Below are positions 54 through 23,728 of a stretch of 64,000 nt of DNA, in pieces. Position 1 is the stretch's first letter. Every line of letters starts with the position of its first letter. The notes beneath the pieces were generated by a model. It was not told the origin of the DNA. It made no database searches and was given only the letters and a program-made list of their open reading frames with translations. This DNA comes from a plasmid, in the sequence record NZ_LC532224.1, one strand, 5' to 3'. Made by a program: the position numbers and the translations under genes.

Positions 54-458
54 ATGTCTGAAGCACTCAAATCGTTAAACAATATTCGTACTCTTCGCGC
101 CCAGGGCCGCGAGCTGCCTTTAGAAGTACTTGAGGAAATCCTCGAAAAGCTTAATGTCATTGTTGATGAGCGTCGTCAGGAAGAATCATCCAAAGCTGCC
201 GAACTGCAAGCTCGTCAGGAGAAACTTGACGCCCTGCGTAAGTTAATGGAAGAAGATGGTATCAACCCGGAAGAGCTGCTTGGCTCATTCCAGGCCAAAT
301 CTACGGCTACCAAGAAAAGCCGTGAACCACGCCCGGCCAAATACTCATTTACTGATGAAAATGGCGAAACAAAAACGTGGACTGGACAGGGCCGTACCCC
401 CAAAGCTCTGGCAGAACAAATTGCAGCCGGTAAAAGTCTTGATGATTTCCTGATCTAA
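54..458 (+). CDS. hns: H-NS family nucleoid-associated DNA-binding protein (plasmid-borne paralog)
   Basis: The 134-aa protein begins [17 protein letters not shown]... and ends ...[20 protein letters not shown]...KSLDDFLI. This matches the canonical H-NS N-terminal oligomerisation region and C-terminal DNA-binding motif (TWTGQGRTP). A Shine-Dalgarno sequence (gtgagg) lies upstream. Confidence 0.9.
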
Positions 459-3472: not shown

Positions 3473-4288
3473 TCATTGTTCATGAGCCAGGCCCTGGTAT
3501 CCTGCCCAGCGTACGGCCAGCCGCTCTAAGTCCAGATCGTACACCAGCGGTGTGATTTTACGGCCTTCAAACAGCTCGCCCAGCTCAATGCCTGGCTTAA
3601 AATGAACGGTCAGGGTGGCCGGATCTATGCCCATAAGATCGGCATCAAACAGAGCATGCATTGTTGGAGTCATCAGGATGCCATTAGACGGATTGTACCG
3701 GGTTCCATGTTCAATGTGTGCCGCATCCAGGACACCGCCATTAACCCAACCGGTTACCGCACAACGGCCCGCGAAATTCTCGATGAGCAGAGCTTTAAAT
3801 TTACCCTGTGCCACGCCACTACGTTGCGTCACTACGCGCTCGCAGTGCTCACCCTGGATATCTACGTCAGGTTTCCGCTTTGGTTCGCTGGTGGCCGTCT
3901 CAGCTTGTTTTAGGGTGGAACGTGGATAGGCCAGGTTATATGCTGCGCCTGTGGTCATTTGCTCGATGACCGCAGGTGCATAACCTTCTGCTTCCAGCTT
4001 ACGATATGCAGCCCGGTAGTCTCTTTGGGTTTTCAGCGGGTATATCTTTCCGCCTTTACCATCGAAAGCGATAAACCAGAAATCGTCCGTGCCAGTTTCC
4101 AGATTTCTGCAACGTTTCAGATGCCATCCGCCTTCTCTCGCCCAGATGGTACGGTTATTTCTGGCATTCGTTTTGTCATAACCGTTCTCGTCAAGCCAGC
4201 TATCAAAGCTGGTCAGCCCCAGATCCTGAACCTCCAGAGAAGGCACTCGAATGACCTGCAAGGTATGGCGGGGTCTTGGCTCTCTCAT
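3473..4288 (-). CDS. HNH endonuclease (second copy, different N-terminal domain)
   Basis: AGRCAVTGW...AAHIEHGTRYNPSNGILMTPTMHALFDADLMGI shows the same HNH_2-type motif as the 1065-1922 gene. Confidence 0.75.
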   Translation of the reverse strand: MREPRPRHTLQVIRVPSLEVQDLGLTSFDSWLDENGYDKTNARNNRTIWAREGGWHLKRCRNLETGTDDFWFIAFDGKGGKIYPLKTQRDYRAAYRKLEAEGYAPAVIEQMTTGAAYNLAYPRSTLKQAETATSEPKRKPDVDIQGEHCERVVTQRSGVAQGKFKALLIENFAGRCAVTGWVNGGVLDAAHIEHGTRYNPSNGILMTPTMHALFDADLMGIDPATLTVHFKPGIELGELFEGRKITPLVYDLDLERLAVRWAGYQGLAHEQ

Positions 4289-5078: not shown

Positions 5079-6404
5079 TCATTTCTCAGCCAGGCGCCTG
5101 CATTGCTGCCTCATTCCATCAAAAATACTTTCCGCAAGCTGCTGGGGGAACTGGTCCGGAAGAAGCCCGCTAACACGTTCAATGACACCCGGGGTTCTGG
5201 CGATGATTTCCTCTATCATCGCCTCTGTCTGCTGTTTACTCAGGCCGGTTATCTCACCATGCCTGATCCAGTGGCGTCGTTGTATTCGATATATCTGGTA
5301 ATAGTTGCTACTGCCACGTACGGCCATCGCCAGTTTGCACTTCTGCCAGGATATCTGATTGTTCCCATGACCGATCACCGGCCATGCCGACAACACATCA
5401 TAGAGTGGTGTAAGGTGATAACGTCCCTGTGGCCCAATAGAAATACTGAAATTTTTAGCGTGGCCATCTGTTGCGGCCATCATCCAGAAAACTATCTGCG
5501 TCATAAAAAACTGCGCTTTGTCACGCTCAGCACGGTCTGAATTACTCAGAACTTCCATAATTTCCGATATACCTGGCCCGCCGTCCGCCTGATATTTTCG
5601 TAATGGCGAAATGCCCAGGGCCTGACACATATCCTCCTGGGGTAAACGAATGATCCATTGTCCGTTTCCTGACCATTTTCGGTCAAAACGTTCTACCACC
5701 AGCGCTTTCTGATCTTCAAAGTGAGCAATCTGCGTTCTTGCCACGGGGAGCCCGTACTGTTCGAGAAGTACCGAGCAGAGCCATTCATTTTCAACCGACG
5801 AGCGCATGTCGGCTTTCATGTTCCCCACAAGTCCGAGCGGTAGCTTGAATATATGCGTCGTTGGTGTATTACCCTCCGGCATACACCACCGATCTTCATG
5901 CCACAGTAGGGCTGTTTTCTCCTGAGCACCGGCAATAGATAAACGTAAGTCGTCGTTATCTTCTGGCCTGCCCGGTAGCAATGTCTCCGTGGTATTACGC
6001 AAAGTTGCCGCAATTTCTGATTCAGTAAGCGGGTGATACTTCACGGAATATAAATCTGTGGGTTCATCTCCGTCATGAAGCAGCTGTATCGCGCCCACGC
6101 AGTCTTTTCCCAGCTCCGTCAGAAGATCAAAAGGCTCCAGGCTATCGGCCTTGTAACGCATTGCCAGACGTCTGCGTATGCCTTCGCTGTCCGGGAGTAA
6201 ATTATCAAAATAGTCACGTACCACATTTCCACGCCAGACCTGGTTCCCGGGAGTAAAAGGAAGGGACAATGACAGCGGCCTTCCCTGTTCGTCTGCACTC
6301 CAGTCAGGAAGGTATTGTAAGCTGTCTACCCCTTTACTTTTTTCCCAGTATCCGACTTTGATTCCGTTCATCCAGATTGCCAGACGCTGCTGTTTCCGGC
6401 TCAT
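5079..6404 (-). CDS. hipA: HipA-family serine/threonine kinase toxin
   Basis: The 441-aa protein is collinear with E. coli HipA, including ...SLSLP..., FDNLLPDS, SIAGAQEKTAL, ATDGHAKNFS and RLPQEDMCQ. It overlaps the upstream hipB by ATGA. Confidence 0.9.
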   Translation of the reverse strand: MSRKQQRLAIWMNGIKVGYWEKSKGVDSLQYLPDWSADEQGRPLSLSLPFTPGNQVWRGNVVRDYFDNLLPDSEGIRRRLAMRYKADSLEPFDLLTELGKDCVGAIQLLHDGDEPTDLYSVKYHPLTESEIAATLRNTTETLLPGRPEDNDDLRLSIAGAQEKTALLWHEDRWCMPEGNTPTTHIFKLPLGLVGNMKADMRSSVENEWLCSVLLEQYGLPVARTQIAHFEDQKALVVERFDRKWSGNGQWIIRLPQEDMCQALGISPLRKYQADGGPGISEIMEVLSNSDRAERDKAQFFMTQIVFWMMAATDGHAKNFSISIGPQGRYHLTPLYDVLSAWPVIGHGNNQISWQKCKLAMAVRGSSNYYQIYRIQRRHWIRHGEITGLSKQQTEAMIEEIIARTPGVIERVSGLLPDQFPQQLAESIFDGMRQQCRRLAEK

Positions 6405-6408
6405 ATCG

Positions 6409-6705
6409 TTACCATTTCTCCTGTCGTGCAGGTGAGTTTGATTTAAGCATTTCTTCCGTCTGCTTCCCCTCTGAAGAGGCGGTTGTCGAGGAGAAGCTGA
6501 TTTTTACGCCCAGGATAGAAAACACCTTGAATAGCCGTTCAATGCTCGCACTGGCAGGGTTGGCTTCCAGACGTGAGTATGTCTGTTGAGTGACCCCTAA
6601 CCTTTCGGACAGGTCTTTTTGCGTCAGGCCATTCGCCTTGCGAAAACCAATGAGCAAGGGACGCAACTGGTTGAGCGTGTTTAACGGGTAATCATTATTG
6701 ATCAT
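6409..6705 (-). CDS. hipB: HipB-like XRE-family HTH antitoxin
   Basis: A 98-aa protein with an HTH (LTQKDLSERLGVTQQTYSRLE) positioned directly upstream of hipA. Confidence 0.85.
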   Translation of the reverse strand: MINNDYPLNTLNQLRPLLIGFRKANGLTQKDLSERLGVTQQTYSRLEANPASASIERLFKVFSILGVKISFSSTTASSEGKQTEEMLKSNSPARQEKW

Positions 6706-6758
6706 AAGCTGGCCTCAGTAGTTCCTCTGATACACCTTGTACGCTGTTTTCTAAACAT

Positions 6759-6830
6759 ACACCCTAAAAGCTGTAATATCAAATTAACAGCCTAAAAGCT
6801 GTTAAATAGAGAGTACAACCTTTAGGCTGT
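6759..6830. promoter_or_regulatory. three palindromic operator-like sites (ACAGCCTAAAAGCTGT-like) spaced 28 bp, upstream of hipB
   Basis: The three sites are 6759-6774 acaccctaaaagctgt, 6787-6802 acagcctaaaagctgt (a perfect palindrome) and 6815-6830 acaacctttaggctgt. Confidence 0.5.
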
Positions 6831-7102
6831 TACTAAGTGGCAGCATAAATCTTTATGAGGTTTGATATGAGAGAACTATCAATAATAAGCCGTTACGCTC
6901 GTACAGCATCCGGTAAGAGAGCTGACAGATCAGGATCATCGGTAAACGAGAAGCGGAGTATCTTATGGCCCTGTTGTGAGCTGTATAAATAACTACGAGC
7001 TACTCTCTGCCTCGGGGAGGAGGCAGAGAGAGTATTAAAAGCAAAGGCAGACATTTTTAGCAGCTGGTGGGCTATGGGGTTCCGGAGGTGCTCCGGTGAA
7101 TG

Positions 7103-8491
7103 TTACTTGACTGGCAAGTTTCCTGCTCTGATGGTCAATGCCTCGATGCTGTCTATATTGTTCTGAAGCCGTTCCAGTTCTGCCTTTTCAATACCGGCCC
7201 AAAGCTTTAAGTGTCGCTGATAAAGGGACCACTTGAGTGAGTGAAAACCATTCCAGGCCAACCCCATCCAGGAGGCGTAATTCGCATTGAGAATATTGCC
7301 GGTGATATACATTTTACCTGCGTTAACAGCACTGGAAGTTCCATAACCCAGGGCAAGCATCATCCGGAAGCGTGGATTTAGCCGCAACGGCATGGTATCC
7401 AGTAAGGTCTCCCCAAAAGCTCCTTTTCCCAGCGATACCTGTTTCGCCACATAGAAAACCCGCATCAAAACTTCCATTATGCTCATCGGAATACTTGTCA
7501 CGATAAACTGACGAAAGTCATACCCGTTGACATACATGTACTCTATTTGTTTGCCGAAGTTAGAACTCCCCACAGGGATCCCCTCAAGCATACGAAGTAG
7601 CCCCATAAAAGGAGCCGGTAACCCCATGCCACGGTTTCCTTTTGCTGAGGGGGCATTAACATCCGATGCCAGGTGTCCAAACATTCTGGCGATGAGCCTG
7701 AAAATATTGGTTTCGTCTGTAACGCCTTTACTGGAAGGATAAACCACGATCTGTCCATTCTGAACCACCGTACAGGTCCCGTTCAGCATATCCTTTATAC
7801 CGAAAATAATGCCCAGTACGGGATCGTGTGACAAAGCTCTTAAGCGGTGATTTGTGGGAGACAAAACGCCACCGGCCGCACCCACTAAATCGCTGCTGAT
7901 CGAACTGTCTGGTGCCCCTATAGGGAACAAATCTGAGAGTTTTGTACTCAGGTCCTCCGGCAAAATGGCATTGAAGGCTTTCTGCACCTGTTTATTGAAA
8001 ATACCATCCACTTCTGCCGTAAAGCTCACCGTAGGTTTTGGCGGGGCTCTGACGCAAAGTAAATCCAGCATGGATGCTATGAGCCCGCATCCGCAGGCAA
8101 TAGCATAATCCCAGGCGTCGAGTGCGTAGCGATCATTAAATTCTTTAATATGATTCTGGATCCGGGCATCTACAACAGCCAAGTCATCCGTGGAGAGTAT
8201 TGTGGCCAGTCCAATATCACTGCATACACGCTGGTTAGCCTCGCTATATATAGTCTTGAGACCAGTAGAATGCATGGCAGTATCTGAAGGGGTCATTTCT
8301 CGCAGATGATGTTCTTTAAGCGCCAGATGCTCCGCTTCATCAAGTTCAGTGCCGCTGATTAGCCCGGTCAACTGTGCCTTAAGGCTCTCTATATCACTGT
8401 TAATTGTCTCGTGAGCGTTCGCGATATCCTGACCACGGAGCTGAATATAACGGATGGCCCTGAACTCATCATCATAAGGAGACTGACTCAT
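7103..8491 (-). CDS. 462-aa protein of unknown function with N-terminal coiled-coil and multiple hydrophobic/amphipathic segments
   Basis: A long ORF with consistent coding character. It ends 5 nt after the upstream Gly-zipper gene. No catalytic motif recognised. Confidence 0.6.
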   Translation of the reverse strand: MSQSPYDDEFRAIRYIQLRGQDIANAHETINSDIESLKAQLTGLISGTELDEAEHLALKEHHLREMTPSDTAMHSTGLKTIYSEANQRVCSDIGLATILSTDDLAVVDARIQNHIKEFNDRYALDAWDYAIACGCGLIASMLDLLCVRAPPKPTVSFTAEVDGIFNKQVQKAFNAILPEDLSTKLSDLFPIGAPDSSISSDLVGAAGGVLSPTNHRLRALSHDPVLGIIFGIKDMLNGTCTVVQNGQIVVYPSSKGVTDETNIFRLIARMFGHLASDVNAPSAKGNRGMGLPAPFMGLLRMLEGIPVGSSNFGKQIEYMYVNGYDFRQFIVTSIPMSIMEVLMRVFYVAKQVSLGKGAFGETLLDTMPLRLNPRFRMMLALGYGTSSAVNAGKMYITGNILNANYASWMGLAWNGFHSLKWSLYQRHLKLWAGIEKAELERLQNNIDSIEALTIRAGNLPVK

Positions 8492-8495
8492 GTGT

Positions 8496-8993
8496 TTACC
8501 TCACCGCGACCAGGCTACCTTTTGGAGCTTTCTTAGTAAGCATGTCGATTGTTGCCTTGATGCCAGCAATTTCTGCCTTAAAATATTCCGCATTCGACAT
8601 CAACCTTTCCTGAACTTCGTAGAGCTTTTGGATGGCCTGACTAAGGGCGGCTGTCAGTTTCGCATTTTTTTTGTGTTTCACTATCGCGTACCCGCCAATC
8701 CCTAACACAGCTACAGGTGCGGCCAATACCGCAATGCCTGCAACCATACCGCCACCGACGATAGACCCTGCTGTAGCGAGCCCGGAGGTTATGCCTGCTG
8801 CTGACACTCCCGTTGTACCAAGCGTATAGAGAGCACCGAAGGAAGCCGCTGCGCCTACGCCTGACCCCGCCAAAGCTGCTGCGCCCTCAGTAATACCCGG
8901 GAACTTATTTTCAAGCGCCTGAAGAGCACTTGTAACTTCATCCATTGCCTTCTTGCGAATTTTTTCGAGCTCTTCAGTTTCGGTAGCGTCCAT
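8496..8993 (-). CDS. glycine-zipper membrane protein (start probably MDATETEEL at 8993; ORF extends to 9065)
   Basis: The central segment AAALAGSGVGAAASFGALYTLGTTGVSAAGITSGLATAGSIVGGGMVAGIAVLAAPVAVLGIGGYAIV is a Gly/Ala zipper transmembrane region flanked by amphipathic helices. Confidence 0.6.
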   Translation of the reverse strand: MDATETEELEKIRKKAMDEVTSALQALENKFPGITEGAAALAGSGVGAAASFGALYTLGTTGVSAAGITSGLATAGSIVGGGMVAGIAVLAAPVAVLGIGGYAIVKHKKNAKLTAALSQAIQKLYEVQERLMSNAEYFKAEIAGIKATIDMLTKKAPKGSLVAVR

Positions 8994-9195
8994 TACAGGC
9001 CTCGTATTCATAACTTGCTGTGTGATAGGTGAAAAAGAGCACCATAAAAGTGATGAAGAAATCATGACTTACTATTGTGGCACTTTCGAGTTCATGTTTG
9101 TCAGTTTCAATGCTGTTGCTGTTAGTAAGGGCAGACGCCATATCGGGCAGACCCAAAATAACTATCGTGCCAGCGTCATTTTGGAACTGACTTTG

Positions 9196-9852
9196 CTAAA
9201 AATCAGTAGCGGACTGAACAGACATGTGTGGATTTGAATCTGGGCAGGTTCCAGACATTATTCCAACCAGACTTCCAATGACAAAATGCTCGTCATTCTC
9301 GGAGACGACATAGGGTCCACCAGAGCAACCATCGGTGTTGAAATGTGCTATTACAAAGCGAGTTGTGAGATGTTGGGGAGAATGATTTGAGCAATTTAAA
9401 GGCCAAATGCCTGAAACTTCACCAGGGAATGTCGAAATTGTTGTCTCATTCATTGGATATCCGACACCCAATGTACCCATGCCAGCTGCGGGAGCCAGGA
9501 CCTTAAAGTAACTACTTACAGGCTGTTGTATTCCAGCTGGTAATACGATTTCTGCACTGTCAACAAACGGAATGCCGTCTTTAAAGTCTGCCCTGTCATT
9601 AGCCTCATTGAGAATGAAATCGACTAGAACAGGCTCTTCGTTCACCAGTCCTTGATGGTTAAGAAATTTGACGTAAAGTTTAAGTGTATTGCTGACGGGA
9701 TAAATTTTTCCAAGAGCATTGGTAACAACATGGGCTGCGGTGAGAATCTTTTGCTGCTGACCATTATCGAAACCAAACGCAGTTGCTTCGAGATGGCTAC
9801 TAAAATGAGGATCATTGCTTACATAGATTTTACAAACGTAGTTTTCAAACAT
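9196..9852 (-). CDS. S1 family (trypsin/chymotrypsin-like) serine protease
   Basis: TAAHVV (catalytic His) and DGCSGGP (GDSGGP-type catalytic Ser) are present, and the size and spacing fit a Trypsin_2 domain. Confidence 0.8.
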   Translation of the reverse strand: MFENYVCKIYVSNDPHFSSHLEATAFGFDNGQQQKILTAAHVVTNALGKIYPVSNTLKLYVKFLNHQGLVNEEPVLVDFILNEANDRADFKDGIPFVDSAEIVLPAGIQQPVSSYFKVLAPAAGMGTLGVGYPMNETTISTFPGEVSGIWPLNCSNHSPQHLTTRFVIAHFNTDGCSGGPYVVSENDEHFVIGSLVGIMSGTCPDSNPHMSVQSATDF

Positions 9853-10186
9853 TATTTCCTCCTTTTGCCGGTACCTAATCAGTTACACGGCTGCATGTTA
9901 TAAACAACTAAACTCGCTTCCTGATATTTGAGTTTGTATGTTTTGCCAGGCACCAGCTCACCTCTGAAACACGGTTAGTCTCCTCCATGACATGGTTATG
10001 GCGATGGTCAGAAACTGTTATCGACGAAAGGCTGGAATTCCTTTAATGGCATTATCCATTTCAAGTCGTATGTCCTGAACGGGAGCGTATATTTTTATGA
10101 TTCCAGATCTTAACCCTGAAACATTCCCCGTATCAAAACTGACCCGTTACAGATAAGTCACCACCGGTGCTGTCGATTAATTTAGT

Positions 10187-10443
10187 GAATTGCATGTCCT
10201 CATCCCATAAAGGGTAGGGCCTACCCCCGGCATCGAGCAAACCTGACCACCCTGCCCTTATTAAGACCCCACATGCGGCAATGGTGCCCTGTCCACGCCG
10301 CCCGCGAACTTTGAGGAAATGGGGAGAAAATAAAAAGAAAACAAAAAGTTATCGGCTGAAGTACCGGCGCAGATCGGGAATCAGGCGAAGCCTGACAGCA
10401 CGTTAGGGCCTGGCAGGGGGCTTGAGGGATGAGGACATGCAAT
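10187..10443. repeat. 19-bp perfect inverted repeats (gaattgcatgtcctcatccc / gggatgaggacatgcaatt) flanking a ~217-bp GC-rich segment; MITE-like
   Basis: Direct reading of both arms. The internal segment contains short palindromes (gggtagggcctacccc). Confidence 0.5.
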
Positions 10444-10510: not shown

Positions 10511-10942
10511 TTACCAGTTCGCCGGGTAGCATGGCCAGCAAAGCCAGGCATCGAGCACCCGGGTTTCACTGACGGCCGCTGCATAGACGCCGGTATCCGG
10601 GAAGAAATAAACCGGGGTGGCGTTGTTCAGCTGGTCGCCTTCATCGGCCAGAGCGCCGATCACCTCATGAGGCTTAAGCAGCATATCCGTTAAATATTCA
10701 TCCGGGTGGATGGCATTCAGCGATATGGCCATCTCCAGAAATTCATCCAGGGTATGGCGGGTACGATACCCCCGGAAAACCTCGTATGAAGGCGTGACGC
10801 ATTCACCATCCAGGGAACAGGCATCGTAACCGGCCAGCTGCTCTTCGGTGAGTCCGGAGGCATGCTTTGCCACAAGATTCGTAAATTGCTCTTTATCGTC
10901 CATCACAATCCTTACGCTGTAGGGGCCTGTTTGTGTTATCAC
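10511..10942 (-). CDS. hypothetical protein (143 aa; start possibly MDDKEQF)
   Basis: An ORF in a GC-rich patch. No recognised domain. Confidence 0.3.
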   Translation of the reverse strand: MITQTGPYSVRIVMDDKEQFTNLVAKHASGLTEEQLAGYDACSLDGECVTPSYEVFRGYRTRHTLDEFLEMAISLNAIHPDEYLTDMLLKPHEVIGALADEGDQLNNATPVYFFPDTGVYAAAVSETRVLDAWLCWPCYPANW

Positions 10943-11823
10943 TGCTTCCGGTTTTTACTTCGCACAACCCGGCAGGTATCCGGTCGCCCGGGCGTCCTTT
11001 GCGGTCTTGTTCGCCCTTCGCCTGAATTACGTCAAATCCCTTTCACTACCCGGCCGCAGGGTGACACCTCCCCTTTTCTCCGGAAGCGAAAGAGGAAGAA
11101 CAGTTTAACAGCCCGGATCCTCAATAATTTTCGCGTAACGGACTAAATAACCGGTTTATGCAGCTTCTGATAACCACAGACCGCGATAGAATAAAACGTC
11201 TGGTGAGGAACCGGAGTGTTATGTAAGCGGGGGGTTTAACTGGGTATCTGTGTAGTCCTATTTAGCCAGATATCCCGAATAAAAACCTCAACGATTAGGT
11301 AAACGAAATGGATGGATTCTGGTCGATGTTCTGTTTGTTTGTCGTGGTAGTTTCACTGCATAAAGCCCTTTCTGTAGCAGCAGCACGAGCAGACGCAGCA
11401 AAATTAAATATGCTTCTCAGAATGAGAAAGTTTAAAAAGTAGCTTTCAAGACATCTGAGAATTCTTTTAAATCCTCAGAGGAAGTTATATGTTTAGGCTA
11501 TTTGCAAACTAAGGTTGGAATTCCATCATTCTAGCCTTAGATCTTTGATCAAGTGAAGTTGCTCACTTGGTTGGATTTTACCGTTTCCTGACGGCTTTTC
11601 AGAAGCGAGGGCTGGTTGGAATGCCTTCCAGCTAGAAGTCTTGCAGATGCTCTCCGGGCATTAACTCATTGTCGAATCTGCACCAGTATCACTAGGTTGT
11701 TGAGCGGGCGATTAGCTTTTTCACTGAGCCGCTGTACACTCGACTGCTTCAAGAAGCACTACTTACCATTTGCCTGCCGTAAGGTCTGTTCTTAGCTGGA
11801 TTTTTTTGGGAGGATACGCAGTC

Positions 11824-12810
11824 ATGACAACTCAATCCAGCTCAATACAATACGCTTACGCGCTAGACGGCGAGGGCACCCTCACGCACATTGGCGCTGC
11901 CCTGCGCTCACATACTTACACCTGCCCAGGTTGTAAGAGCCCCCTGACCCCGGTAATGGGCGAGTTCAACGCTAAGCACTTTCGCCATTCGGAAGAATGC
12001 TGTGCCCTTGAAACCTATCTTCACAAGTGCGGCAAAGAAGCATTCTTCTATCGCTACCAACAAGCTCTCAGCCGTGAAATGCCTATTAGCCTTGAGCTGG
12101 AGCGCCGGGTTGCCTGTAATGGTTCTCGTTTAGCCTTGGTTAGAGACGAAGCACGTCAGTGCGTAAAATCCGTGCCTGCACGCTACAACTTGACTCAATT
12201 TTTCGATCAGGCAGAGCTGGAAAAACACGATAAGGTCACAGGGCTGCGACCAGACGTGATGTTGTATGATACGACTGGCGAAAGGCGTTGCTACGTAGAG
12301 ATTTGTGTCACACACCCCTGCTCTCAAGACAAGATCGAAGCCGGTATCCCGATTCTTGAGTTTAAGGTCCAATCTGCCTCTGATATTCAGATGTTGCTTA
12401 CCGGGGCCTACTCGATCAAGGAGAAGATCCTGAGAGTATTCAACTGGCTTCCCCCGTTTCAATCTGTGGACACCTGTAGCGGCGTCTGCTCAGTAGGTAA
12501 CGTGGATATGTCTGTCTGGAGTTTAAGTGGTTCCGGCCGACTCAACGAACAAACGATGCCGCTCGCTGAAGTGGATTTAACAATCAATTCTGACGTGAAC
12601 ACATGGCCTAGATCGTTAGGGGCCGCTGAGCTGGCTGATAACTTACGAGCTTTTATCCGTCACGCCGATCCTCATTCACTATTTCCCAACTGCATTATGT
12701 GCGAGCAAGCAGGCCGATGGGAGGATGGCTATCTGCAATGTCACAGTAAGGCAAAGATCGTTCCCTACACCGAGGCCCGTCAGTGCGCCAATTACAAGGT
12801 TAAGGCATGA
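11824..12810 (+). CDS. CoiA-like nuclease family protein (ORF from 11770; likely start MTTQSS at 11824)
   Basis: The N-terminal zinc-finger signature YTCPGCKSPL...HFRHSEE matches the C-x2-C...HFxH element of competence protein CoiA-like proteins. Its stop overlaps the helicase start (ATGA). Confidence 0.65.
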   Translation: MTTQSSSIQYAYALDGEGTLTHIGAALRSHTYTCPGCKSPLTPVMGEFNAKHFRHSEECCALETYLHKCGKEAFFYRYQQALSREMPISLELERRVACNGSRLALVRDEARQCVKSVPARYNLTQFFDQAELEKHDKVTGLRPDVMLYDTTGERRCYVEICVTHPCSQDKIEAGIPILEFKVQSASDIQMLLTGAYSIKEKILRVFNWLPPFQSVDTCSGVCSVGNVDMSVWSLSGSGRLNEQTMPLAEVDLTINSDVNTWPRSLGAAELADNLRAFIRHADPHSLFPNCIMCEQAGRWEDGYLQCHSKAKIVPYTEARQCANYKVKA

Positions 12811-14471
12811 CCAAAAGACTGACTTGGGAGCAGAAAAGTATTGTCAGCCATGACACCGGACATGCGTTGGTAAAAGCCGTACCTGGTAGCGGGAAAACAA
12901 CCACACTTGTAAAGCGCGTTGAGCGGCTGGTCAAGACGGGAACTGATCCTCGCTCCATTCTGATCCTGATGTACAACAAGTCGGCGCAGGTGAGCTTCAC
13001 GGAGAACTTGAAGACGGCACTGATGTCGAGCGTGATTCCAGAAATCCGCACGTTCCACAGCTTGGCCTTAAAGATTGTTGGTTACGGAGAACGCCAACAG
13101 ATAATCAAGAAGAAAGACCTCATTACTCCAAGCGACTACCGCTATGAGCAACTGGTAAAGCAAGCCTACCGCTATGGCTTTGACCATGAGGCGAATTATA
13201 TTGACCCCAATGAAATTGAAAACTTCGAGCTGTTTATTGCTCGCTGCCGGGCGGCGGCCGTAACTCCTGTTGATGCTGCCAATGATCCAACGTTCAGCAA
13301 CATCAAACGGGAGTTTATTCACGCCTATGGCCGCTATTGTGAGCTGCTGGAGGAAAACAGTCTGCGAACCTTTGATGACTGTTTGATTGAGGCTGTCGCA
13401 CTGTTGCGTAATGACAGCAGCCTTGGTGCCCACTTCAAGCACATCATTGTTGATGAATATCAGGACGTTAACCTGATACAGCATGACATGACCCGCTTGC
13501 TATCTAAGTCGGATACGTCGGTTATGGCTGTTGGTGATGTTAACCAGTGTATTTATGAGTGGCGTGGTGCTCGACCAGACTTTATCGGCGGACTGTTTGA
13601 AAGGCACTACCCGAATACGAAGGTGTTTCAACTGTCATGCACGTTCAGATTTGGCCATGAGCTTTCCTTGATGGCTAACTCGGTAATTCGGCGCAACTCT
13701 ACAAAGCTGACCAAGCTTTGTGTCAGTCATCCTAGCACCCCCAAAACAGAGGTCAGATTGCACTTTGATAACTGCCTATCCAAGGTGCTATCAAACCTCT
13801 CGGTGAGCAGTGGAACACAAGCCATATTGTCCCGCACTAAGGCGAACCTTGCTGAGGCGGAAATTGCTTTACGCCTGTGTGGGCTACCTTATCGCTACCT
13901 CAATGGTTCAAGCGCATTACACACCCGCACCGAAATCGGGATACTGGTAGTTGGCGTCTTGCTGTCTGTGTACGGCGATCTGCGGCTACTGGAAAACCAT
14001 CCCAACAAACAAGCGATTGTTTACGGCTTTCTGAAGGAGGCTGGTTTTAGATGGCAGAAAGGGCAATTCAAAGCGGCGCTCAGTGGATTGATGGCTCCGC
14101 ACGCCGACCTATGGTCTGCTCTAGGTCAGTTATTCGAGGGCGCACAATACCAAAAAGATCGGCTGGGCAGGCTCGCCACTATCTGCCAGAAAGACGGAGA
14201 GGAAACGCCTGCTATCGATGTGTTACGACGCCTGAGTATGGAGGGTTTCATTGATAGTGTTGGCTCTGAGGGTGTAACTCGCACTGGATCGAACGACCAG
14301 CAACGAGGGGTCGTGAGGATCGGGGAGCTACTTGACTCCAGTAAGATCGATTCCCGCACGTTTTTAAACCTTATCTTGAATCCAGGCGAGGCTGCTACTG
14401 ACTGCGATCCCTTCATCCTTTCCACACTGCATGGTTCCAAGGGGCTGGAGTGGGATAACGTAATACTGATC
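12807..14471 (+). pseudogene. UvrD/Rep-like SF1 helicase, N-terminal 555 codons, interrupted by transposon insertion
   Basis: Walker A AVPGSGKTTTL, motif II IIVDEYQDVN and ...HGSKGLEWDNVILI are present. The reading frame runs into the transposon terminal repeat at 14472 and terminates inside the insertion sequence. Confidence 0.85.
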
Positions 14472-14493
14472 GGGGTCGTCTCAGAAAACGGAA

Positions 14494-15820
14494 TCTATGG
14501 TCACTCCCGTTTTTGCAACACCGATTTTGACGACAAGTTGGCTTGCTTGAATCTATCCGGCGTCTGAATGGGATTTTATTCCCGCGCCTTGATGAGTTCC
14601 GCGCCTGATGAACCTCCAGAAAATATACGGCTTCAATGAGCCTTTCCGTTTTACAGGTTCCTCAACAGGCCGGTGGGCCGTTAGTATCATCAATATCAGT
14701 ATTCGCAAAACCAGATCAGTAATTCTTTAAACCGGTGTATTTCTGCCGTTATGCTACATAAGTTTGCTGTCGTGCCGTTAGGGCCCAGGCTATTCTGGCC
14801 AGCTTGTTTGCCAGAGCACAAGTGACGACAAAGTTGCTTTTCCGGCACAGTAAATCCCTGACCCAATCGGCCAATTTGCCAGACTGGTGTTCCAGTTTTT
14901 GTATGAATACCCTGGCACATTGAACCAACAAAGTTCGGATCTTTTTATTACCTCGCTTACTAATTCCCAGCAATGTCGTCCTACCTCCCGTGCTGTACTG
15001 CCGAGGTACAAGCCCTGTTGCCGCCGCAAAGTCACGGCTGCTGGCGTACTGCTTCCCGTCGCCAATCTCAGTTGAAATAGTACTCGCTGTCAGTGTTCCG
15101 ACGCAGGGAATGCTCAGCAAGCGCTGTCCAACCTCATCTTCGTCCAACTTTCGTTTCAACTGGGATTCCAAATCTTTAATCTGCTCAACAAGATAGTGAT
15201 AATGCTGTTGTAATTTCAGCAATAACTGGCTGAGGTAAAGAGGCAAACTATTATCCTCAAGAATGGTACTCAGTCGGCTAATAACGGCAGCTCCTCGGGG
15301 AACGCTAATGCCAAATTCCAGCAGAAAAGCATGCATTTGATTGGTTGTTTTTACCTTATCCTGAACCAGGGATTCACGGACACGATGCAGAGCCCGCATT
15401 GCCTGCTGAGATTCCGTTCTGGGCTGCACAAAACGCATAGACGGACGCGATGCAGCTTCACAAATAGCTTCGGCGTCGACAAAGTCGTTTTTATTGCTTT
15501 TAACGAACGGGCGGACAAATTGTGGTGATATCAGCTTTGGGGAATGCCCCAACTCTTCCAACTTGCGTGCCATAAAGTGAGAACCGCCACAGGCTTCCAT
15601 TGCGATGGTTGTAGCGGGGCATGTCGCCAAAAATTCGATCAACTTTGGCCGGGTAAATTTTTTACGGTAAACAGCCTTCCCGCGACGATCCTGGCAATGA
15701 ATATGGAAAGAGTTTTTACCCAGATCGATACCAATGAGCGCAATGTTTTCCATGATAGTTCTCCGAATGAAAGCCTGTCCTCAGCATAGTACCGGGAAGG
15801 AGGGAGTGACCATCTCATTA
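14494..15820 (-). mobile_element. IS4321/IS5075-like IS110-family insertion sequence, copy 1 (1327 bp), inserted in the transposon terminal repeat
   Basis: It sits between the 22-nt outer and 16-nt inner parts of the 38-bp repeat. Its ends are tctatggtcactccc... and ...gggagtgaccatctcatta. Confidence 0.85.
14749..15753 (-). CDS. IS110-family (IS1111 group) transposase
   Basis: The 334-aa protein begins MENIALIGIDLGKNSFH... and has the DEDD-type transposase layout. It is 100% identical to the protein encoded at 22067-23071. Confidence 0.9.
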   Translation of the reverse strand: MENIALIGIDLGKNSFHIHCQDRRGKAVYRKKFTRPKLIEFLATCPATTIAMEACGGSHFMARKLEELGHSPKLISPQFVRPFVKSNKNDFVDAEAICEAASRPSMRFVQPRTESQQAMRALHRVRESLVQDKVKTTNQMHAFLLEFGISVPRGAAVISRLSTILEDNSLPLYLSQLLLKLQQHYHYLVEQIKDLESQLKRKLDEDEVGQRLLSIPCVGTLTASTISTEIGDGKQYASSRDFAAATGLVPRQYSTGGRTTLLGISKRGNKKIRTLLVQCARVFIQKLEHQSGKLADWVRDLLCRKSNFVVTCALANKLARIAWALTARQQTYVA

Positions 15821-15831
15821 AATAAAGCACG

Positions 15832-16389
15832 CTAAGCGTGCGTGGAGGCTGGCACCCAGCGGTACAGCGTCGGAATGGACACGCCGAGGTTCTTGGCCAC
15901 GTCCTTGGGCGGCACCCCGCTGGCCAGCAGCTTCTTGGCCGACTCGATCTTGCTGTCGGTCATCTTCGGCTTGCGGCCGCCTTTGCGGCCGAGCTGCTTG
16001 GCGACTTCCAGCCCGGCGCGGGTGCGCTCGACGGTCAGCTCGCGCTCCATTTCGGCAAGGCTCGCCATGACGTGGAAGAAGAACCGCCCGGATGGTGTGC
16101 CGGTGTCGATGGAGTCGGTGAGGCTCCTGAACTGGACACCGTGCTTGTGCAGATCGCCGACCAGATCGACCAGTTGCTTGACCGACCGGCCCAGCCGGTC
16201 GAGCTTCCAGACGACCAAAGTATCGCCTTCGCGCAGCATTTCGAGCGTCTTGGCCAAGCCAGGCCGGTCTGCCCGCGTGCCACTCACCTTGTCCTCGAAG
16301 ACCTTTTTACATCCGGCCTTGCTCAAGGCTTCGCGTTGCAGCTCCAGGTTCTGATCCTGCGTCGAGACGCGCGCATAGCCAATCAACAT
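15832..16389 (-). CDS. tnpR: serine recombinase / resolvase TnpR
   Basis: The N-terminus MLIGYARVSTQDQNLELQ contains the catalytic Ser, and a C-terminal HTH is present. The stop falls inside the transposon terminal repeat. Confidence 0.9.
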   Translation of the reverse strand: MLIGYARVSTQDQNLELQREALSKAGCKKVFEDKVSGTRADRPGLAKTLEMLREGDTLVVWKLDRLGRSVKQLVDLVGDLHKHGVQFRSLTDSIDTGTPSGRFFFHVMASLAEMERELTVERTRAGLEVAKQLGRKGGRKPKMTDSKIESAKKLLASGVPPKDVAKNLGVSIPTLYRWVPASTHA

Positions 16390-16754
16390 GGCTTGTCTCG
16401 CGCCCGGTCGATGCGTTCCTGCATCGCCTGCATCACTTCTTCGTGGGTGTACGATCTGGCGTTGGCGTCGGTGGCTTGCCGCAGGGCTTCCTCAACCTCG
16501 CGCGTCATCCGCTCGTAATCCTCCGGCCACAGCGCTTGCTCCATGCGCAGCGACGCCTGACTCAGCAGGTGCAGCAGGCTGAACAGCCGCATGTCGTTGG
16601 TGGCGACGATGCGCTCCCGAATCTGCTCCTGAATAGCTTCGCTAGCCCGATGCGCTTGTGGTGTGGCAGTCCCCTCGTAGTCAGCGGGGAATTCCGCTTC
16701 CTCGGCAATCCTTGCCCAGGCGCTGGCCAGCGCCTCGATGGTTGACGTGCTCAT
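16383..16754 (-). CDS. hypothetical protein (probable start MSTSTIEAL)
   Basis: Its ORF overlaps the tnpR start and is ATGA-coupled to the upstream membrane gene. Confidence 0.4.
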   Translation of the reverse strand: MSTSTIEALASAWARIAEEAEFPADYEGTATPQAHRASEAIQEQIRERIVATNDMRLFSLLHLLSQASLRMEQALWPEDYERMTREVEEALRQATDANARSYTHEEVMQAMQERIDRARDKPC

Positions 16755-17263
16755 TTCCGCCGCTCCTGTGCTCTTTGGCGAATCAACCGGCCAAGGGGCC
16801 TCGACGCGAAAACCAGCAGCATCACGCCTATCGGATACCAGGTCGAGAAGACCACCAAGGCATCGAAGGCTGGCCGTCCGGTGTTGGTAGGCAGTACGGC
16901 GGTCACAGCCATCAACCCGCCGACCGTCCAGATGATGCGCCACACGTAGGGCATCACGCGGGGCACGTAGCCGTCATCGAAAGCGGTCTGGTAGTAGCGG
17001 CGCAGGCCGCGCTCGGCAAGCGCCTGGCGCTGCCGCTCCGACAGCGCATCCGTCCGGCCATACCAGCGCCGGAATGGTGGACAGCGCAGCAGCAAAGGGG
17101 TGAAGAGGATCATCACCGCCACGATCGCGACACCCCACGCCATGACGGCGCCGGCATCGGGCCGCTTGGCGTTCTCGATCACGGGCGCGAAGACGCCCGG
17201 AGCACCGATCATCCAGAACAGCGCAATGTGCTGATGGAAGGAGAGCTTCATTTGCTCATCCAC
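16751..17263 (-). CDS. integral membrane protein (4 predicted TM helices)
   Basis: Hydrophobic segments give the membrane call. The C-terminus is basic. Confidence 0.45.
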   Translation of the reverse strand: MDEQMKLSFHQHIALFWMIGAPGVFAPVIENAKRPDAGAVMAWGVAIVAVMILFTPLLLRCPPFRRWYGRTDALSERQRQALAERGLRRYYQTAFDDGYVPRVMPYVWRIIWTVGGLMAVTAVLPTNTGRPAFDALVVFSTWYPIGVMLLVFASRPLGRLIRQRAQERRK

Positions 17264-17574
17264 TTGCGCAGCAGGCGCTTTTTCAGGGAGGCGCGTTCTT
17301 GCGGGTTGCGTCCCTTGTGATTGGCGATGCGATCCGCCGTGGCGGCCTGGCGCTTGACGGGCCAGTAGGAGCGGCCATCCTTGCCCATCGACCAGACGCT
17401 GCTGGCCTGGTTTTCCAGCAGGGGCAGATGGGCGCTCAGGGCTTCGGGCGACGCGCTGGTCAGCGCCGTGCGCTCACGGGTGCGCCAGCGCTGATGCCAG
17501 AGCTTCTTGTTCTCGCGCTCGCTGCCGCAGGTCGTGTGCCCGACGATGGGTGTTTTGCGGCGGCTGCGGCTCAT
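17248..17574 (-). CDS. small basic hypothetical protein
   Basis: ORF overlapping the downstream gene; first gene of a three-gene set. Confidence 0.4.
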   Translation of the reverse strand: MSRSRRKTPIVGHTTCGSERENKKLWHQRWRTRERTALTSASPEALSAHLPLLENQASSVWSMGKDGRSYWPVKRQAATADRIANHKGRNPQERASLKKRLLRKWMSK

Positions 17575-17828
17575 AACGTAGTGGTCTCCAAGAACATTCA
17601 GGACTGATCCCAGGCGTCGATGGTCAAGACCTGATCGGCAGGACAGGCGGCTACGCGGTCGGGAACTGGATGGTGTTCAGTCTCATGCCGACCCCATTCG
17701 ATTGATCGCGTCGCTTGCGGCACGCTGCGACGCAAGGAGGTTTGCGACCTGGTTTAGCAGCCGTGTCCGCTGCATGTCTGTTACCTATCTCCCCGACCGC
17801 TCATTGGACCAACTCCAGAGATTGGGCT

Positions 17829-18185
17829 CTATCGCTCAGCCAATACGAAACCGGCATTGGCTGATGCCACAACCGAGACTAACACAAATGGCTCGGTACC
17901 TGTATTTCGCGCCCCGTGCACTTGGCCCGGTCTTGCCACGGCTATCTCACCTTCCCTGAGGGCACGAACAATCCCATTGCCCTGAAAGTAATCAGCCATT
18001 CCCGACAAAACAGTCCACGTGTCTTGGCCGTGAGGATGAATGTGAGCCGCAATTTCCTGCCCGGGATGGACATGCCAAACCACGATAATTGAGTCTCGGG
18101 TTTCAAGCACAACGGAACGAATAGGCTCGCCTTCGGACGGCTGAACATACTCGGCTACAGAAAATATTCTCGATTCAACAGTCAT
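17829..18185 (-). CDS. cupin-domain protein (start MTVESRIF with strong Shine-Dalgarno; long ORF to 18404 is spurious overlap)
   Basis: HVHPGQEIAAHIHPHGQ...VHGARN matches the two-His cupin motifs. Confidence 0.6.
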   Translation of the reverse strand: MTVESRIFSVAEYVQPSEGEPIRSVVLETRDSIIVVWHVHPGQEIAAHIHPHGQDTWTVLSGMADYFQGNGIVRALREGEIAVARPGQVHGARNTGTEPFVLVSVVASANAGFVLAER

Positions 18186-18576
18186 CGGAGATCCCTCTTT
18201 CACAGTTGTCGTTACGGTCTTCATCGTCGGCATCCTGACGCACGGCGGGCAATTGCTGGAGCAACGCCGGCAGCCATTCCTGTACCGTCTCCCACACCAC
18301 ATCGAGGTTGATGTCGAAATAGCCGTGAGCCATGCGATTACGCATATTGCGCATGCTGCGCCACGGCACGTCGGCATGCGCCTGGGTGAACTCGACGTAG
18401 CCATCCATCACCTTTGTGGCCGCCTCGCCGATGACGATCAGGCTCATGATGACGGCCTGCTGGGTGCGCTTGTCGGCCAAGAAGTCGTCCTTGGCCATCC
18501 CTTCCACGAAGCTGCGCGCATCGGTTGCGGCCTGCTGAATGTGGTCGAGGTAATCGGGCAGGCGGTTCTCGCTCAT
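18175..18576 (-). CDS. hepT: HepT-like (DUF86/HEPN) toxin
   Basis: RNRMAHGY fits the R-x4-6-H-x-Y HEPN motif. It is coupled to the upstream MNT gene. Confidence 0.8.
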   Translation of the reverse strand: MSENRLPDYLDHIQQAATDARSFVEGMAKDDFLADKRTQQAVIMSLIVIGEAATKVMDGYVEFTQAHADVPWRSMRNMRNRMAHGYFDINLDVVWETVQEWLPALLQQLPAVRQDADDEDRNDNCERGISDDC

Positions 18577-18869
18577 ATCGGTTGCGCCTCCGCGAGCACC
18601 TTGGCCCGGAACTTCGGCGGCAGGTCGCCGGGAGTCAGCAGATCGACGTCAACGCCGAGCAGCGATTTCAGTTCTTCTTCCAAATCGCCCAAGTCCAACA
18701 ACGTGGCACCGGGCAGCGCATCGACCAACAGGTCGAGGTCGCTGCCATCCCGGTCGGTGCCATGCAGCACCGAGCCGAAGACGCGCGGGTTCGCGGCGCG
18801 AAAGCGGCCTACCGCTTCACGCACTGCGCTTCGCTTCATGTCAAGCACAACAGACGGTCGCATGCGCAT
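18573..18869 (-). CDS. mnt: MNT-type nucleotidyltransferase antitoxin
   Basis: GSVLHGTDRDGSDLDLLV fits the GS-x(n)-DxD minimal nucleotidyltransferase motif. Confidence 0.8.
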   Translation of the reverse strand: MRMRPSVVLDMKRSAVREAVGRFRAANPRVFGSVLHGTDRDGSDLDLLVDALPGATLLDLGDLEEELKSLLGVDVDLLTPGDLPPKFRAKVLAEAQPI

Positions 18870-19021
18870 CCTTTCTTATCGAAACTCGTTGAGATGATAT
18901 GCAATCAAGAATAGAATTTCAAGAACTATTTTCGAGAATCGCAATGCCTTGATTCCCGTGCCGCGCCGGTTGCCTTGGCGGGCTTGTCACAAACCTACGT
19001 TTTCAAGAAGAAGGAAACCGC

Positions 19022-21988: not shown

Positions 21989-21999
21989 CGTGCTTTATT

Positions 22000-23325
22000 T
22001 AATGAGATGGTCACTCCCTCCTTCCCGGTACTATGCTGAGGACAGGCTTTCATTCGGAGAACTATCATGGAAAACATTGCGCTCATTGGTATCGATCTGG
22101 GTAAAAACTCTTTCCATATTCATTGCCAGGATCGTCGCGGGAAGGCTGTTTACCGTAAAAAATTTACCCGGCCAAAGTTGATCGAATTTTTGGCGACATG
22201 CCCCGCTACAACCATCGCAATGGAAGCCTGTGGCGGTTCTCACTTTATGGCACGCAAGTTGGAAGAGTTGGGGCATTCCCCAAAGCTGATATCACCACAA
22301 TTTGTCCGCCCGTTCGTTAAAAGCAATAAAAACGACTTTGTCGACGCCGAAGCTATTTGTGAAGCTGCATCGCGTCCGTCTATGCGTTTTGTGCAGCCCA
22401 GAACGGAATCTCAGCAGGCAATGCGGGCTCTGCATCGTGTCCGTGAATCCCTGGTTCAGGATAAGGTAAAAACAACCAATCAAATGCATGCTTTTCTGCT
22501 GGAATTTGGCATTAGCGTTCCCCGAGGAGCTGCCGTTATTAGCCGACTGAGTACCATTCTTGAGGATAATAGTTTGCCTCTTTACCTCAGCCAGTTATTG
22601 CTGAAATTACAACAGCATTATCACTATCTTGTTGAGCAGATTAAAGATTTGGAATCCCAGTTGAAACGAAAGTTGGACGAAGATGAGGTTGGACAGCGCT
22701 TGCTGAGCATTCCCTGCGTCGGAACACTGACAGCGAGTACTATTTCAACTGAGATTGGCGACGGGAAGCAGTACGCCAGCAGCCGTGACTTTGCGGCGGC
22801 AACAGGGCTTGTACCTCGGCAGTACAGCACGGGAGGTAGGACGACATTGCTGGGAATTAGTAAGCGAGGTAATAAAAAGATCCGAACTTTGTTGGTTCAA
22901 TGTGCCAGGGTATTCATACAAAAACTGGAACACCAGTCTGGCAAATTGGCCGATTGGGTCAGGGATTTACTGTGCCGGAAAAGCAACTTTGTCGTCACTT
23001 GTGCTCTGGCAAACAAGCTGGCCAGAATAGCCTGGGCCCTAACGGCACGACAGCAAACTTATGTAGCATAACGGCAGAAATACACCGGTTTAAAGAATTA
23101 CTGATCTGGTTTTGCGAATACTGATATTGATGATACTAACGGCCCACCGGCCTGTTGAGGAACCTGTAAAACGGAAAGGCTCATTGAAGCCGTATATTTT
23201 CTGGAGGTTCATCAGGCGCGGAACTCATCAAGGCGCGGGAATAAAATCCCATTCAGACGCCGGATAGATTCAAGCAAGCCAACTTGTCGTCAAAATCGGT
23301 GTTGCAAAAACGGGAGTGACCATAG
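22000..23325 (+). mobile_element. IS4321/IS5075-like IS110-family insertion sequence, copy 2, in the opposite transposon terminal repeat, inverted relative to copy 1
   Basis: Same end sequences and the same insertion point in the terminal repeat as copy 1. Confidence 0.85.
22067..23071 (+). CDS. IS110-family transposase (identical to 14749-15753)
   Basis: Identical 334-aa product. Confidence 0.9.
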   Translation: MENIALIGIDLGKNSFHIHCQDRRGKAVYRKKFTRPKLIEFLATCPATTIAMEACGGSHFMARKLEELGHSPKLISPQFVRPFVKSNKNDFVDAEAICEAASRPSMRFVQPRTESQQAMRALHRVRESLVQDKVKTTNQMHAFLLEFGISVPRGAAVISRLSTILEDNSLPLYLSQLLLKLQQHYHYLVEQIKDLESQLKRKLDEDEVGQRLLSIPCVGTLTASTISTEIGDGKQYASSRDFAAATGLVPRQYSTGGRTTLLGISKRGNKKIRTLLVQCARVFIQKLEHQSGKLADWVRDLLCRKSNFVVTCALANKLARIAWALTARQQTYVA

Positions 23326-23347: not shown

Positions 23348-23728
23348 CTGATCGGGCTGAATGAGCAGGAATTTCCTGGCGGCAAACCCGATGATGTTTA
23401 CAGCGTTCGCACATCGATGAACACCCCTCCGGCCGAAGAGGAAATCGAGGAGGAACGTCGGCTGTTTTATGTCGGTATCACTCGCACAAAACAGCAGCTA
23501 AATCTGGTGGTCCCTCTTGATGAAGGGCTTGCGCGGTGGCTCAAAAACCGCTGGGATAGCACCCCGAAGAAGTCACCGATAGCTACTCGCTTCGTCTATG
23601 AGGCTGGCTGGACTGCTTGTGCGGTTACCAGTGATGCGATCTATAACAGCACGGTAGAGAAACAGAAGGCTGACTTCAGCAAGTTTCACCAATGGTATCT
23701 AAGAGATCTTCAGCGGCTAAAAGTCTAG
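23348..23728 (+). pseudogene. UvrD-like helicase C-terminal remainder (motif VI RRLFYVGITRTK) displaced by transposon insertion
   Basis: The frame continues from ...WDNVILI (14471) across the TGATC duplication to GLNEQEFPGGKPDDVY...RRLFYVGITRTKQQL. Removing 14472-23347 plus one TGATC copy restores one ~690-aa helicase ORF. Confidence 0.8.

Follow-up and report, generated by a model that had tools for sequence, protein, structure and literature searches.

What do three adjacent genes beside hipBA on a large plasmid encode, and do the three make up a single system? The genes, for a trypsin-like protease, a Gly/Ala-zipper membrane protein and a 462-amino-acid (aa) protein, occupy positions 7103 to 9852 of a 64,000-nucleotide (nt) stretch of plasmid DNA (sequence record NZ_LC532224.1), and that whole stretch is called the window here. 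An earlier annotation made from the letters alone (the sequence-only reading) had matched none of the three proteins to a family that it could name, and had proposed a protease-licensed membrane-disrupting toxin or defence module after the logic of bacterial gasdermin-protease pairs. Our comparative analyses lead us to read the locus as a Bunzi defence pair that lacks TerB, accompanied by a facultative protease accessory, on an IncHI2 plasmid backbone.

All three open reading frames (ORFs) were confirmed, co-oriented on the minus strand and beside hipBA, where the sequence-only reading had placed them. The features on which the argument depends are as follows.

9852..9196, minus strand: protease gene, 218 aa, trypsin-fold (PA clan, S1-like)
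9065..8496, minus strand: short bnzA-like ORF of 189 aa, with a likely start at Met25 (position 8993) that gives a 165-aa protein
8491..7103, minus strand: bnzB-like gene, 462 aa
8994..9177, minus strand: conserved leader of the pair, kept with or without the protease cassette
9178..10189: protease cassette of ~1.0 kb, made up of the protease ORF and ~340 nt upstream of it, an indel and allele-replacement block
5079-6705: hipBA, adjoining the three-gene locus

The Met25 start of the short bnzA agrees with the RefSeq start, with the starts of homologues and with a GAGG Shine-Dalgarno sequence 6 nt upstream. From the protease stop to this start there are 202 nt, in keeping with the gap of about 200 nt described earlier, and the large gene does begin directly after the membrane-protein gene, with 4 nt between the stop of the 165-aa frame and the ATG of the 462-aa frame. 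This 4-nt spacing, with GGTGAGG just upstream, suggests that short bnzA and bnzB are translationally coupled.

The last two genes are a Bunzi pair without TerB

Bunzi was described by Millman et al. (2022, preprint) as a system made up of BnzB and BnzA, a TerB protein that also has a lipid-interacting domain and two transmembrane helices, and a role in "membrane surveillance" was proposed for it (10.1101/2022.05.11.491447). The sole operon marked as verified there is that of Ligilactobacillus animalis DSM 20602, whose BnzA has 546 aa, and the sequences used here as the validated reference were those of this operon from the supplement of the same work (10.1101/2022.05.11.491447). Measured against these sequences and against the PADLOC models, the 462-aa protein is by homology a BnzB, the conserved large component of Bunzi. 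It matches the PADLOC BnzB model with E=2.9e-53 and 180 bits across profile positions 96-487 of 504, aligns with the validated L. animalis BnzB in BLASTP at 30% identity over 253 aa (E=1e-31), and has in common with it the motifs NHRLRxLxHDP, GHLxSD, GLPAPF and GYDFR; Pfam, NCBIfam and PHROGs gave no match. The family is a large one, such that a HMMER census of 1.84 billion representatives returned 1,159 BnzB clusters (50% identity) at E≤1e-3, with 266 at E≤1e-30. Together with the BnzA-like partner described below, these matches overturn the earlier statement that no nameable family was present.

An AlphaFold2 model of the 462-aa protein was confident (pLDDT 88.9, pTM 0.77) and mostly helical with one beta-hairpin, and a search of the PDB revealed no significant fold relative. 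This structural check, which had been recommended along with the original proposal, turned up no gasdermin fold, and PADLOC gave no gasdermin match, so that a gasdermin-like logic does not fit an almost all-helical protein of this kind. What the alignments revealed instead was a set of invariant polar residues (H215, R216, H222, D223, D234, H273, D277, D325, E340 and R344) whose cluster, across residues 215-344, is kept from Proteobacteria to cyanobacteria and suggests an active or metal-binding site.

The 165-aa protein opens with an N-terminal helix, followed by a membrane region of ~70 residues with 49% Gly+Ala, 21 small-xxx-small motifs and a KD19 maximum of 2.25, which bears out its earlier description as a Gly/Ala-zipper protein; a KHKKNAK basic patch and an amphipathic C-terminal helix or coiled coil come after it. 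Only ~30 residues stand before the membrane region, against ~330 in validated BnzA. The PADLOC BnzA match is weak (E=4.2e-6) and covers only profile positions 301-414 of 544, and there is likewise a weak PADLOC match to LeoBC (E=2.7e-4, going down to 2e-6 for long BnzA). NCBIfam and PHROGs gave no match, Pfam gave only sub-threshold coiled-coil noise with no TerB at E≤1, and no N-terminal lipid-interacting domain of the BnzA type was found in the 165-aa protein. Pairwise BLASTP gave no significant alignment with BnzA of L. animalis or Escherichia coli, a result explained by the low complexity of the region and by supplement sequences that end at ~400 aa, and a profile-profile comparison was therefore required. 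In hhalign, a profile of 14 short partners aligned with one of 12 long TerB-BnzA proteins over the C-terminal third of the latter, with a probability of 98.9% and E=4e-17, and the motif G(V/L)SAAGITSGLA is common to the short partners and long BnzA. Long partners come from cyanobacteria, Chloroflexi and Rubrobacter; they have Pfam TerB and score 127-155 bits on PADLOC BnzA. Going by these alignments, the 165-aa protein corresponds only to the zipper membrane region and C-terminal coiled coil of BnzA. Because BnzA and BnzB homology is combined with a missing TerB domain and an N-terminus of ~30 residues, the final two genes form a Bunzi pair that lacks TerB.

Evaluating this pair across genomes, we scanned one genome per species and obtained 79 loci, which were processed by ORF calling and clustering. 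The BnzB family was found in 76 of the 79, and a BnzA-like partner stood directly upstream on the same strand at 63 loci by gene calling and at 66 by cluster membership, mostly with gaps of -35 to +27 nt to bnzB. By gene calling, 44 of the upstream partners were short (≤215 aa) and 19 long, a ratio that is biased because the clade of the window itself supplied the scan patterns. Of the 13 loci for which no partner was called, three have one by BLAST, and others are disrupted by insertion sequences (IS) or lie at contig ends. Within ±8 kb there was no recurring third gene or Ter gene, and no other family occurred in more than 6 loci; because BnzB and its upstream partner recur and no third family does, the conserved unit is two genes. 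Its hosts span Proteobacteria, Desulfovibrionaceae, Synergistaceae, Campylobacter, Latescibacterota, Binatia, Clostridia, Actinobacteria and cyanobacteria, and canonical TerB-BnzA/BnzB pairs were recovered within the same homologue set. The defence-type neighbours of the pairs include GmrSD, Eco29kI restriction-modification (R-M), variable regions of integrative and conjugative elements (ICEs) and hipBA, and the protease is absent beside the pair in nearly all lineages. Aeromonas enteropelogenes, of which we take A. trota to be a synonym, contributed a locus (L006) with a short partner and a BnzB of 58% identity. Automated annotation reports Bunzi in A. trota (PMC11206119) and on Salmonella IncHI1 plasmids (PMC11305592), calls that may refer to the same locus as the one studied here.

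Several loci depart from the two-gene arrangement. At L037, L042, L053, L054 and L057 (also L050 and L055), from Clostridia and Actinobacteria, a gene of 100-118 aa stands between short BnzA and BnzB (~7430-7950), its product having a single hydrophobic helix and, after it, a charged coiled coil, and these loci may represent a three-gene Bunzi sub-variant. At L067 (7272-9053) and L072 (7179-9053) the BnzB ORFs reach 593 and 624 aa with a separate upstream partner uncalled, and these may be BnzA-BnzB fusions in cyanobacteria. At L002 and L003 (Pseudocitrobacter and Citrobacter), two minus-strand ORFs of 295 and 117 aa at about 6709-7949 resemble an inserted element that separates or replaces the short bnzA and truncates the 5' end of bnzB, and some copies of the module are therefore inactivated.

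The protease is an exchangeable cassette

The protease matches Pfam Trypsin (PF00089) with 27.1 bits against a gathering cut-off of 20.6, and its H41, D98 and S177 (the last in GCSGGP) are invariant across 22 family members, which agrees with the intact S1 catalytic signature noted earlier; D98 is presumably the catalytic Asp. By Pfam it is a bare single domain of 218 aa with no sensor domain; it has no hydrophobic N-terminal segment and is predicted to be a stand-alone cytoplasmic enzyme. The protease sequence alone had no match in the PDB, its profile gave weak matches there to kallikrein and factor XI (E~2e-3) with the GxSGGP region aligned, and NCBIfam and PHROGs gave none. The family is small, with 24 clusters at 90% identity, and all members with a named source are from Enterobacterales or Vibrio. 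Variability along the protein peaks at residues 101-160 and 201-210, including 4 residues before GCSGGP, with the catalytic motifs invariant, such that it appears to lie mainly around the substrate-binding half.

How tightly is this gene bound to the pair? In the one-per-species scan, IncHI2-derived loci were the only ones where it stood beside the pair. When the search started from the protease, homologues with 54-99% identity had the 165-aa and 461/462-aa genes downstream in several different settings, namely a Klebsiella island (L081), a Yersinia ICE beside GmrSD (L083), a locus with an integrase and umuDC (L089), a diverged Citrobacter plasmid (L090) and metagenomic contigs (L098-L102, L104 and L105); loci L095-L097, found from the BnzB side, also have protease and pair, adjoining a large helicase. 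The trio occurs in at least 6 distinct flanking contexts with its order, orientation and ~190-200-nt spacing kept, the spacing being as annotated in 4 of the 5 loci measured. Across the trio loci, similarity to the window at the DNA level sets in 8-60 nt ahead of the protease ATG and is lost within about 20 nt of the bnzB stop codon, and because these boundaries flank the three genes so tightly, the trio is a compact mobile unit of about 2.8 kb. All proteases of at least 54% identity with enough downstream sequence adjoin the pair, except at L085.

Each part also occurs alone. Solitary proteases of 51-61% identity were found in Citrobacter, Serratia, Pantoea, Vibrio and one metagenome contig, and within the same BnzB clade (≥87% identity) there are two protease-less loci, L093 on a related ter/hipA/H-NS plasmid backbone and L094 on an island with Eco29kI R-M and GmrSD, neither of which has a protease remnant by tblastn (E>1). 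The short BnzA proteins of protease-bearing and protease-less loci were compared and no difference was found, the clade-specific 7-residue C-terminal tail KGSLVAVR being present with and without the protease. At L093, 85 nt replace window positions 10189-9178, with homology on both sides. At L090 only the block at ~10200-9100 is diverged (54-71% identical, with flanks at 92-100%); the pair has ~99% identity to the window and the protease 54%, and the position of the protease is unchanged after this allele replacement. The gene-neighbourhood search suggested with the sequence-only reading gave a divided outcome: the trio does stand together in several other genomes and in at least 6 contexts, but the conserved unit is two genes, each part is also found without the other, and the pair does without a protease in nearly all lineages as well as in L093 and L094.

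About 100-185 nt upstream of the membrane-protein start are retained in all of these forms, with homology to the protease-less loci resuming at window position 9177 (L093) and 9094 (L094), and that to L090 from ~9100. The leader at 8994..9177 probably holds the pair's own promoter and ribosome-binding site. A promoter and terminator scan of the region was not above chance overall; its best sigma-70-like match (TTGTCA-16-AATAAT with TG, 10/12) falls within the 3' end of the protease gene, at 9284-9257.

Pairwise Nei-Gojobori estimates of nonsynonymous (dN) and synonymous (dS) divergence revealed two patterns. Between the window and L095, L089 and L101, dS is similar across the three genes (0.55-0.72), which points to co-inheritance; the dN of the protease is 5-7 times higher than that of the pair. 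The membrane protein has a dN/dS ratio (ω) of 0.04-0.15 and BnzB one of 0.10-0.25; that of the protease is 0.20-0.48, or 0.30-0.48 in the comparisons with unsaturated dS. Between the window and L090 or L104, protease dS is 1.0-1.7 against 0.05-0.17 for the pair, which indicates allele replacement. From these comparative data, the protease is best described as a facultative, exchangeable and fast-evolving cassette that is strongly linked to the pair within one lineage.

Two further observations concern sites where these genes lie. The solitary Vibrio parahaemolyticus protease (L092) is beside Gabija-like OLD/UvrD and Mrr genes, and both it and the L083 trio are found just downstream of ICE genes of the TraG-D_C and DtrJ-like types. 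The L092, L083 and L094 sites look like mobile-element defence hotspots.

Plasmid setting and neighbouring genes

The window is 99-100% identical to the IncHI2/IncHI2A backbone of large conjugative plasmids. It matched 474 PLSDB records, 445 of them at 99% identity or more, from hosts that are mostly Enterobacter, Salmonella, Klebsiella, Escherichia and Citrobacter; among them are pK29 and NC_005211 (Serratia marcescens, 274,762 bp), which we take to be plasmid R478, and a Salmonella Senftenberg plasmid (NZ_CP029037) is collinear with the window at 100% identity. The protease was found in 466 PLSDB records and BnzB in 495, about 469 of the latter being enterobacterial and the rest mostly Lactococcus and Lactiplantibacillus with canonical Bunzi. 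Nearly all IncHI2 backbones, that of R478 included, have the three-gene locus.

The genes around the locus are typical accessory or defence genes, comprising hipBA, two HNH_2 nucleases, a CoiA_N-like protein and a UvrD/GajB-like helicase. Two features further from the trio are located as follows.

1065-1922 and 3473-4288: two HNH_2 endonuclease genes
30387-30842: stand-alone TerB gene, about 21 kb from the TerB-less Bunzi pair

The 346-aa CoiA_N-like gene overlaps the helicase gene by 4 nt (window 11770-14567), and the helicase gene is split at about 14567 by an IS4321-flanked Tn3-family (ISPa38) element (14749-23071), its C-terminal remnant being the ORF at 23417-23728. In pK29 the two genes are unbroken, and they could be a candidate two-gene nuclease and helicase defence system. 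Inside the transposon, at about 18175-18863, there is a HepT/MNT-like toxin-antitoxin pair of DUF86 and nucleotidyltransferase genes, and at the very start of the window (54-458) an apparent H-NS-like gene was recognised from its translation and from the H-NS annotation at the equivalent position of L093. A 130-aa RefSeq gene at 10511-10942, whose product had no match in Pfam, PADLOC and PHROG searches, precedes the module in IncHI-type backbones and in the unrelated island L094, and might be loosely linked to the Bunzi pair. A complete ter cluster lies at roughly 26-46 kb of the window, about 20 kb from the locus, and contains terZ, terC and terD homologues, several TerD-family genes, terW and VWA/TerY-type genes.

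Possible function and relation to known systems

How might such a locus work? The explanation that we favour, although we put it a little short of an even chance as a full package, is an abortive response of the Bunzi pair at the membrane, with a protease that modulates or triggers the pair. The short BnzA would insert into the inner membrane through its Gly-zipper region and hold BnzB at the membrane by helix-helix (coiled-coil) contacts. Perturbation of the membrane during phage infection would switch this complex on, host-membrane integrity or energisation would be lost, and the infection would abort. In the enterobacterial clade the protease would tune or trigger the pair, for example by cleaving the short BnzA or BnzB, or by sensing a phage protein. 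That the locus is an accessory module of defence type with a membrane component, as first proposed, remains very likely, whereas licensing of the gasdermin type found no support.

Several points weigh against this explanation. The membrane-disruption step is inferred from the Gly-zipper and hydrophobic features, and the His/Asp/Arg cluster of BnzB could instead point to an enzymatic effector rather than a membrane-lytic one. An E. coli Bunzi operon with a 555-aa BnzA was marked "x" in the original survey (10.1101/2022.05.11.491447), a lactococcal Bunzi failed to protect against the phages used (PMC11381338), and the literature that we searched contains no report of a test of a short TerB-less Bunzi. 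Later papers restate membrane surveillance but offer no mechanism for it. As for the protease, close relatives of it occur alone (L085, 61% identity), its history is decoupled from that of the pair in L090 and L104, its dN/dS of 0.3-0.5 is compatible with relaxed constraint too, and the evidence that couples it to the pair is purely genomic.

Much of this would also be accounted for if the Bunzi core were the same and the protease functionally unrelated to it, an independent single-gene cassette hitch-hiking in defence islands, which we consider rather unlikely. The protease does form a discrete indel or replacement block with its own upstream region while the pair keeps its own leader, it occurs as solitary copies in Citrobacter, Serratia, Pantoea, Vibrio (by Gabija-like and Mrr genes) and a metagenome contig, the pair lacks it in L093, L094 and every other clade, and divergence is discordant where the protease has 54% identity and the pair 99%. 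A mere hitch-hiker fits less well with an arrangement (order, orientation and a spacing of ~190-200 nt) that recurs in at least 6 unrelated contexts whose boundaries flank the trio tightly, with a dS that is similar in the three genes in several comparisons, and with the rule that proteases of at least 54% identity with enough downstream sequence all have the pair, except L085.

A stronger role for the protease can also be imagined, in which, in the enterobacterial clade, it would have replaced the lost TerB/lipid-binding sensor, such that it would recognise a phage cue by way of its fast-evolving substrate-binding half, cleave the short BnzA or BnzB and free a membrane effector of a fold not seen before, with its alleles swapped between plasmids as specificity cassettes. 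We regard such protease gating of Bunzi as unlikely. A step further is the obligate three-gene system of the sequence-only reading, where the protease licenses a latent pore-forming toxin and the Gly-zipper protein is effector or immunity. For this there is the compact co-inherited unit with an intact catalytic triad, variability around the substrate-binding half as expected in an arms race, and the precedent of protease-gated membrane effectors (10.1101/2025.11.14.688446). However, because almost every lineage, and L093 and L094 as well, has the pair but not the protease, the latter is not obligatory for the family; the locus also has no similarity to gasdermin, Pepco or EACC1, the helical BnzB model is without a recognised autoinhibitory beta-domain, and the protease has no sensor domain and no phylogenetic congruence with the pair, all of which makes the obligate trio quite improbable. 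Least probable of all is a non-defence function, be it a membrane-stress or plasmid-fitness module working with the ter cluster (TerB in trans) or an IncHI addiction or entry-exclusion factor: the short BnzA has lost exactly TerB in a window with a full ter cluster and a stand-alone TerB (30387-30842), the locus is near-universal on the IncHI2 backbone including R478, and the literature holds no short Bunzi with a demonstrated anti-phage phenotype, but short pairs are found at dozens of chromosomal sites in many phyla, where no Ter gene recurs within ±8 kb, trio and pair are also found in ICE and island sites beside GmrSD and R-M, and BnzB has a homologue in a defence operon that has been validated.

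Returning to the favoured explanation of a Bunzi pair with a modulating protease, the pair as such is probably already detected by defence-annotation tools. Three things appear to be new, a domain-minimal core, a protease cassette together with the way it evolves, and a BnzB without a structural relative; in the literature we found no paper linking Bunzi to a serine protease or to IncHI2. For the family, this means that the conserved core is the BnzA zipper/coiled-coil module together with BnzB, TerB being dispensable in many lineages; that BnzB combines a confident model, no solved relative and an invariant His/Asp/Arg cluster; and that one clade recruited an exchangeable, fast-evolving protease. 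The protease-bearing clade sits on the IncHI2 backbone, which R478 and about 470 sequenced plasmids have in common and by which mcr, carbapenemase and extended-spectrum beta-lactamase genes are spread. The system may affect the success of phages on IncHI2 hosts, therapeutic phages included. The locus also offers a minimal E. coli-native system for dissecting Bunzi.

Among known systems, Eleos (LeoA/LeoBC) resembles the locus in that the membrane/coiled-coil module of the short BnzA weakly matches the C-terminal membrane region of LeoBC, a likeness limited to a low-complexity membrane region; Pfam finds no dynamin GTPase domain in the three proteins. The literature places Shango (SngA) and Dionysus DinB in one group with Bunzi, as putative systems of membrane surveillance, but the present locus is without their defining TerB domain and without ATPase or helicase partners.

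Modules in which a protease gates a death effector (gasdermin, Pepco/Trypco, EACC1 and MBL) have experimental precedent (Evans et al. 2025, 10.1101/2025.11.14.688446). Like them, the locus sets a trypsin-fold protease beside membrane-associated proteins in defence-type loci, with adjacency kept in one clade. The proteases of those modules are fused to sensors, and those of the MBL clade are phylogenetically congruent with their effectors (10.1101/2025.11.14.688446), whereas the protease here has no fused sensor, is dispensable in most of the family and is not congruent with the pair. Neither Pfam nor PADLOC matched gasdermin, Pepco, EACC1, MBL or alpha/beta-hydrolase effectors in the locus. 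The difference from gasdermin in particular is that the BnzB model is mostly helical with no significant PDB fold match, and that the protease pairing is not obligatory.

The closest relative is Bunzi itself. The present locus differs from it in having a BnzA of 165 rather than 546 aa, with the TerB and N-terminal lipid-binding domains missing, and in the extra trypsin-like protease cassette that the enterobacterial clade carries upstream. It agrees with Bunzi in a BnzB homologue that has the validated motifs, in a Gly-zipper partner with SAAGITSGLA and a C-terminal coiled coil immediately upstream on the same strand, and in being a two-gene cassette found in mobile and defence contexts.

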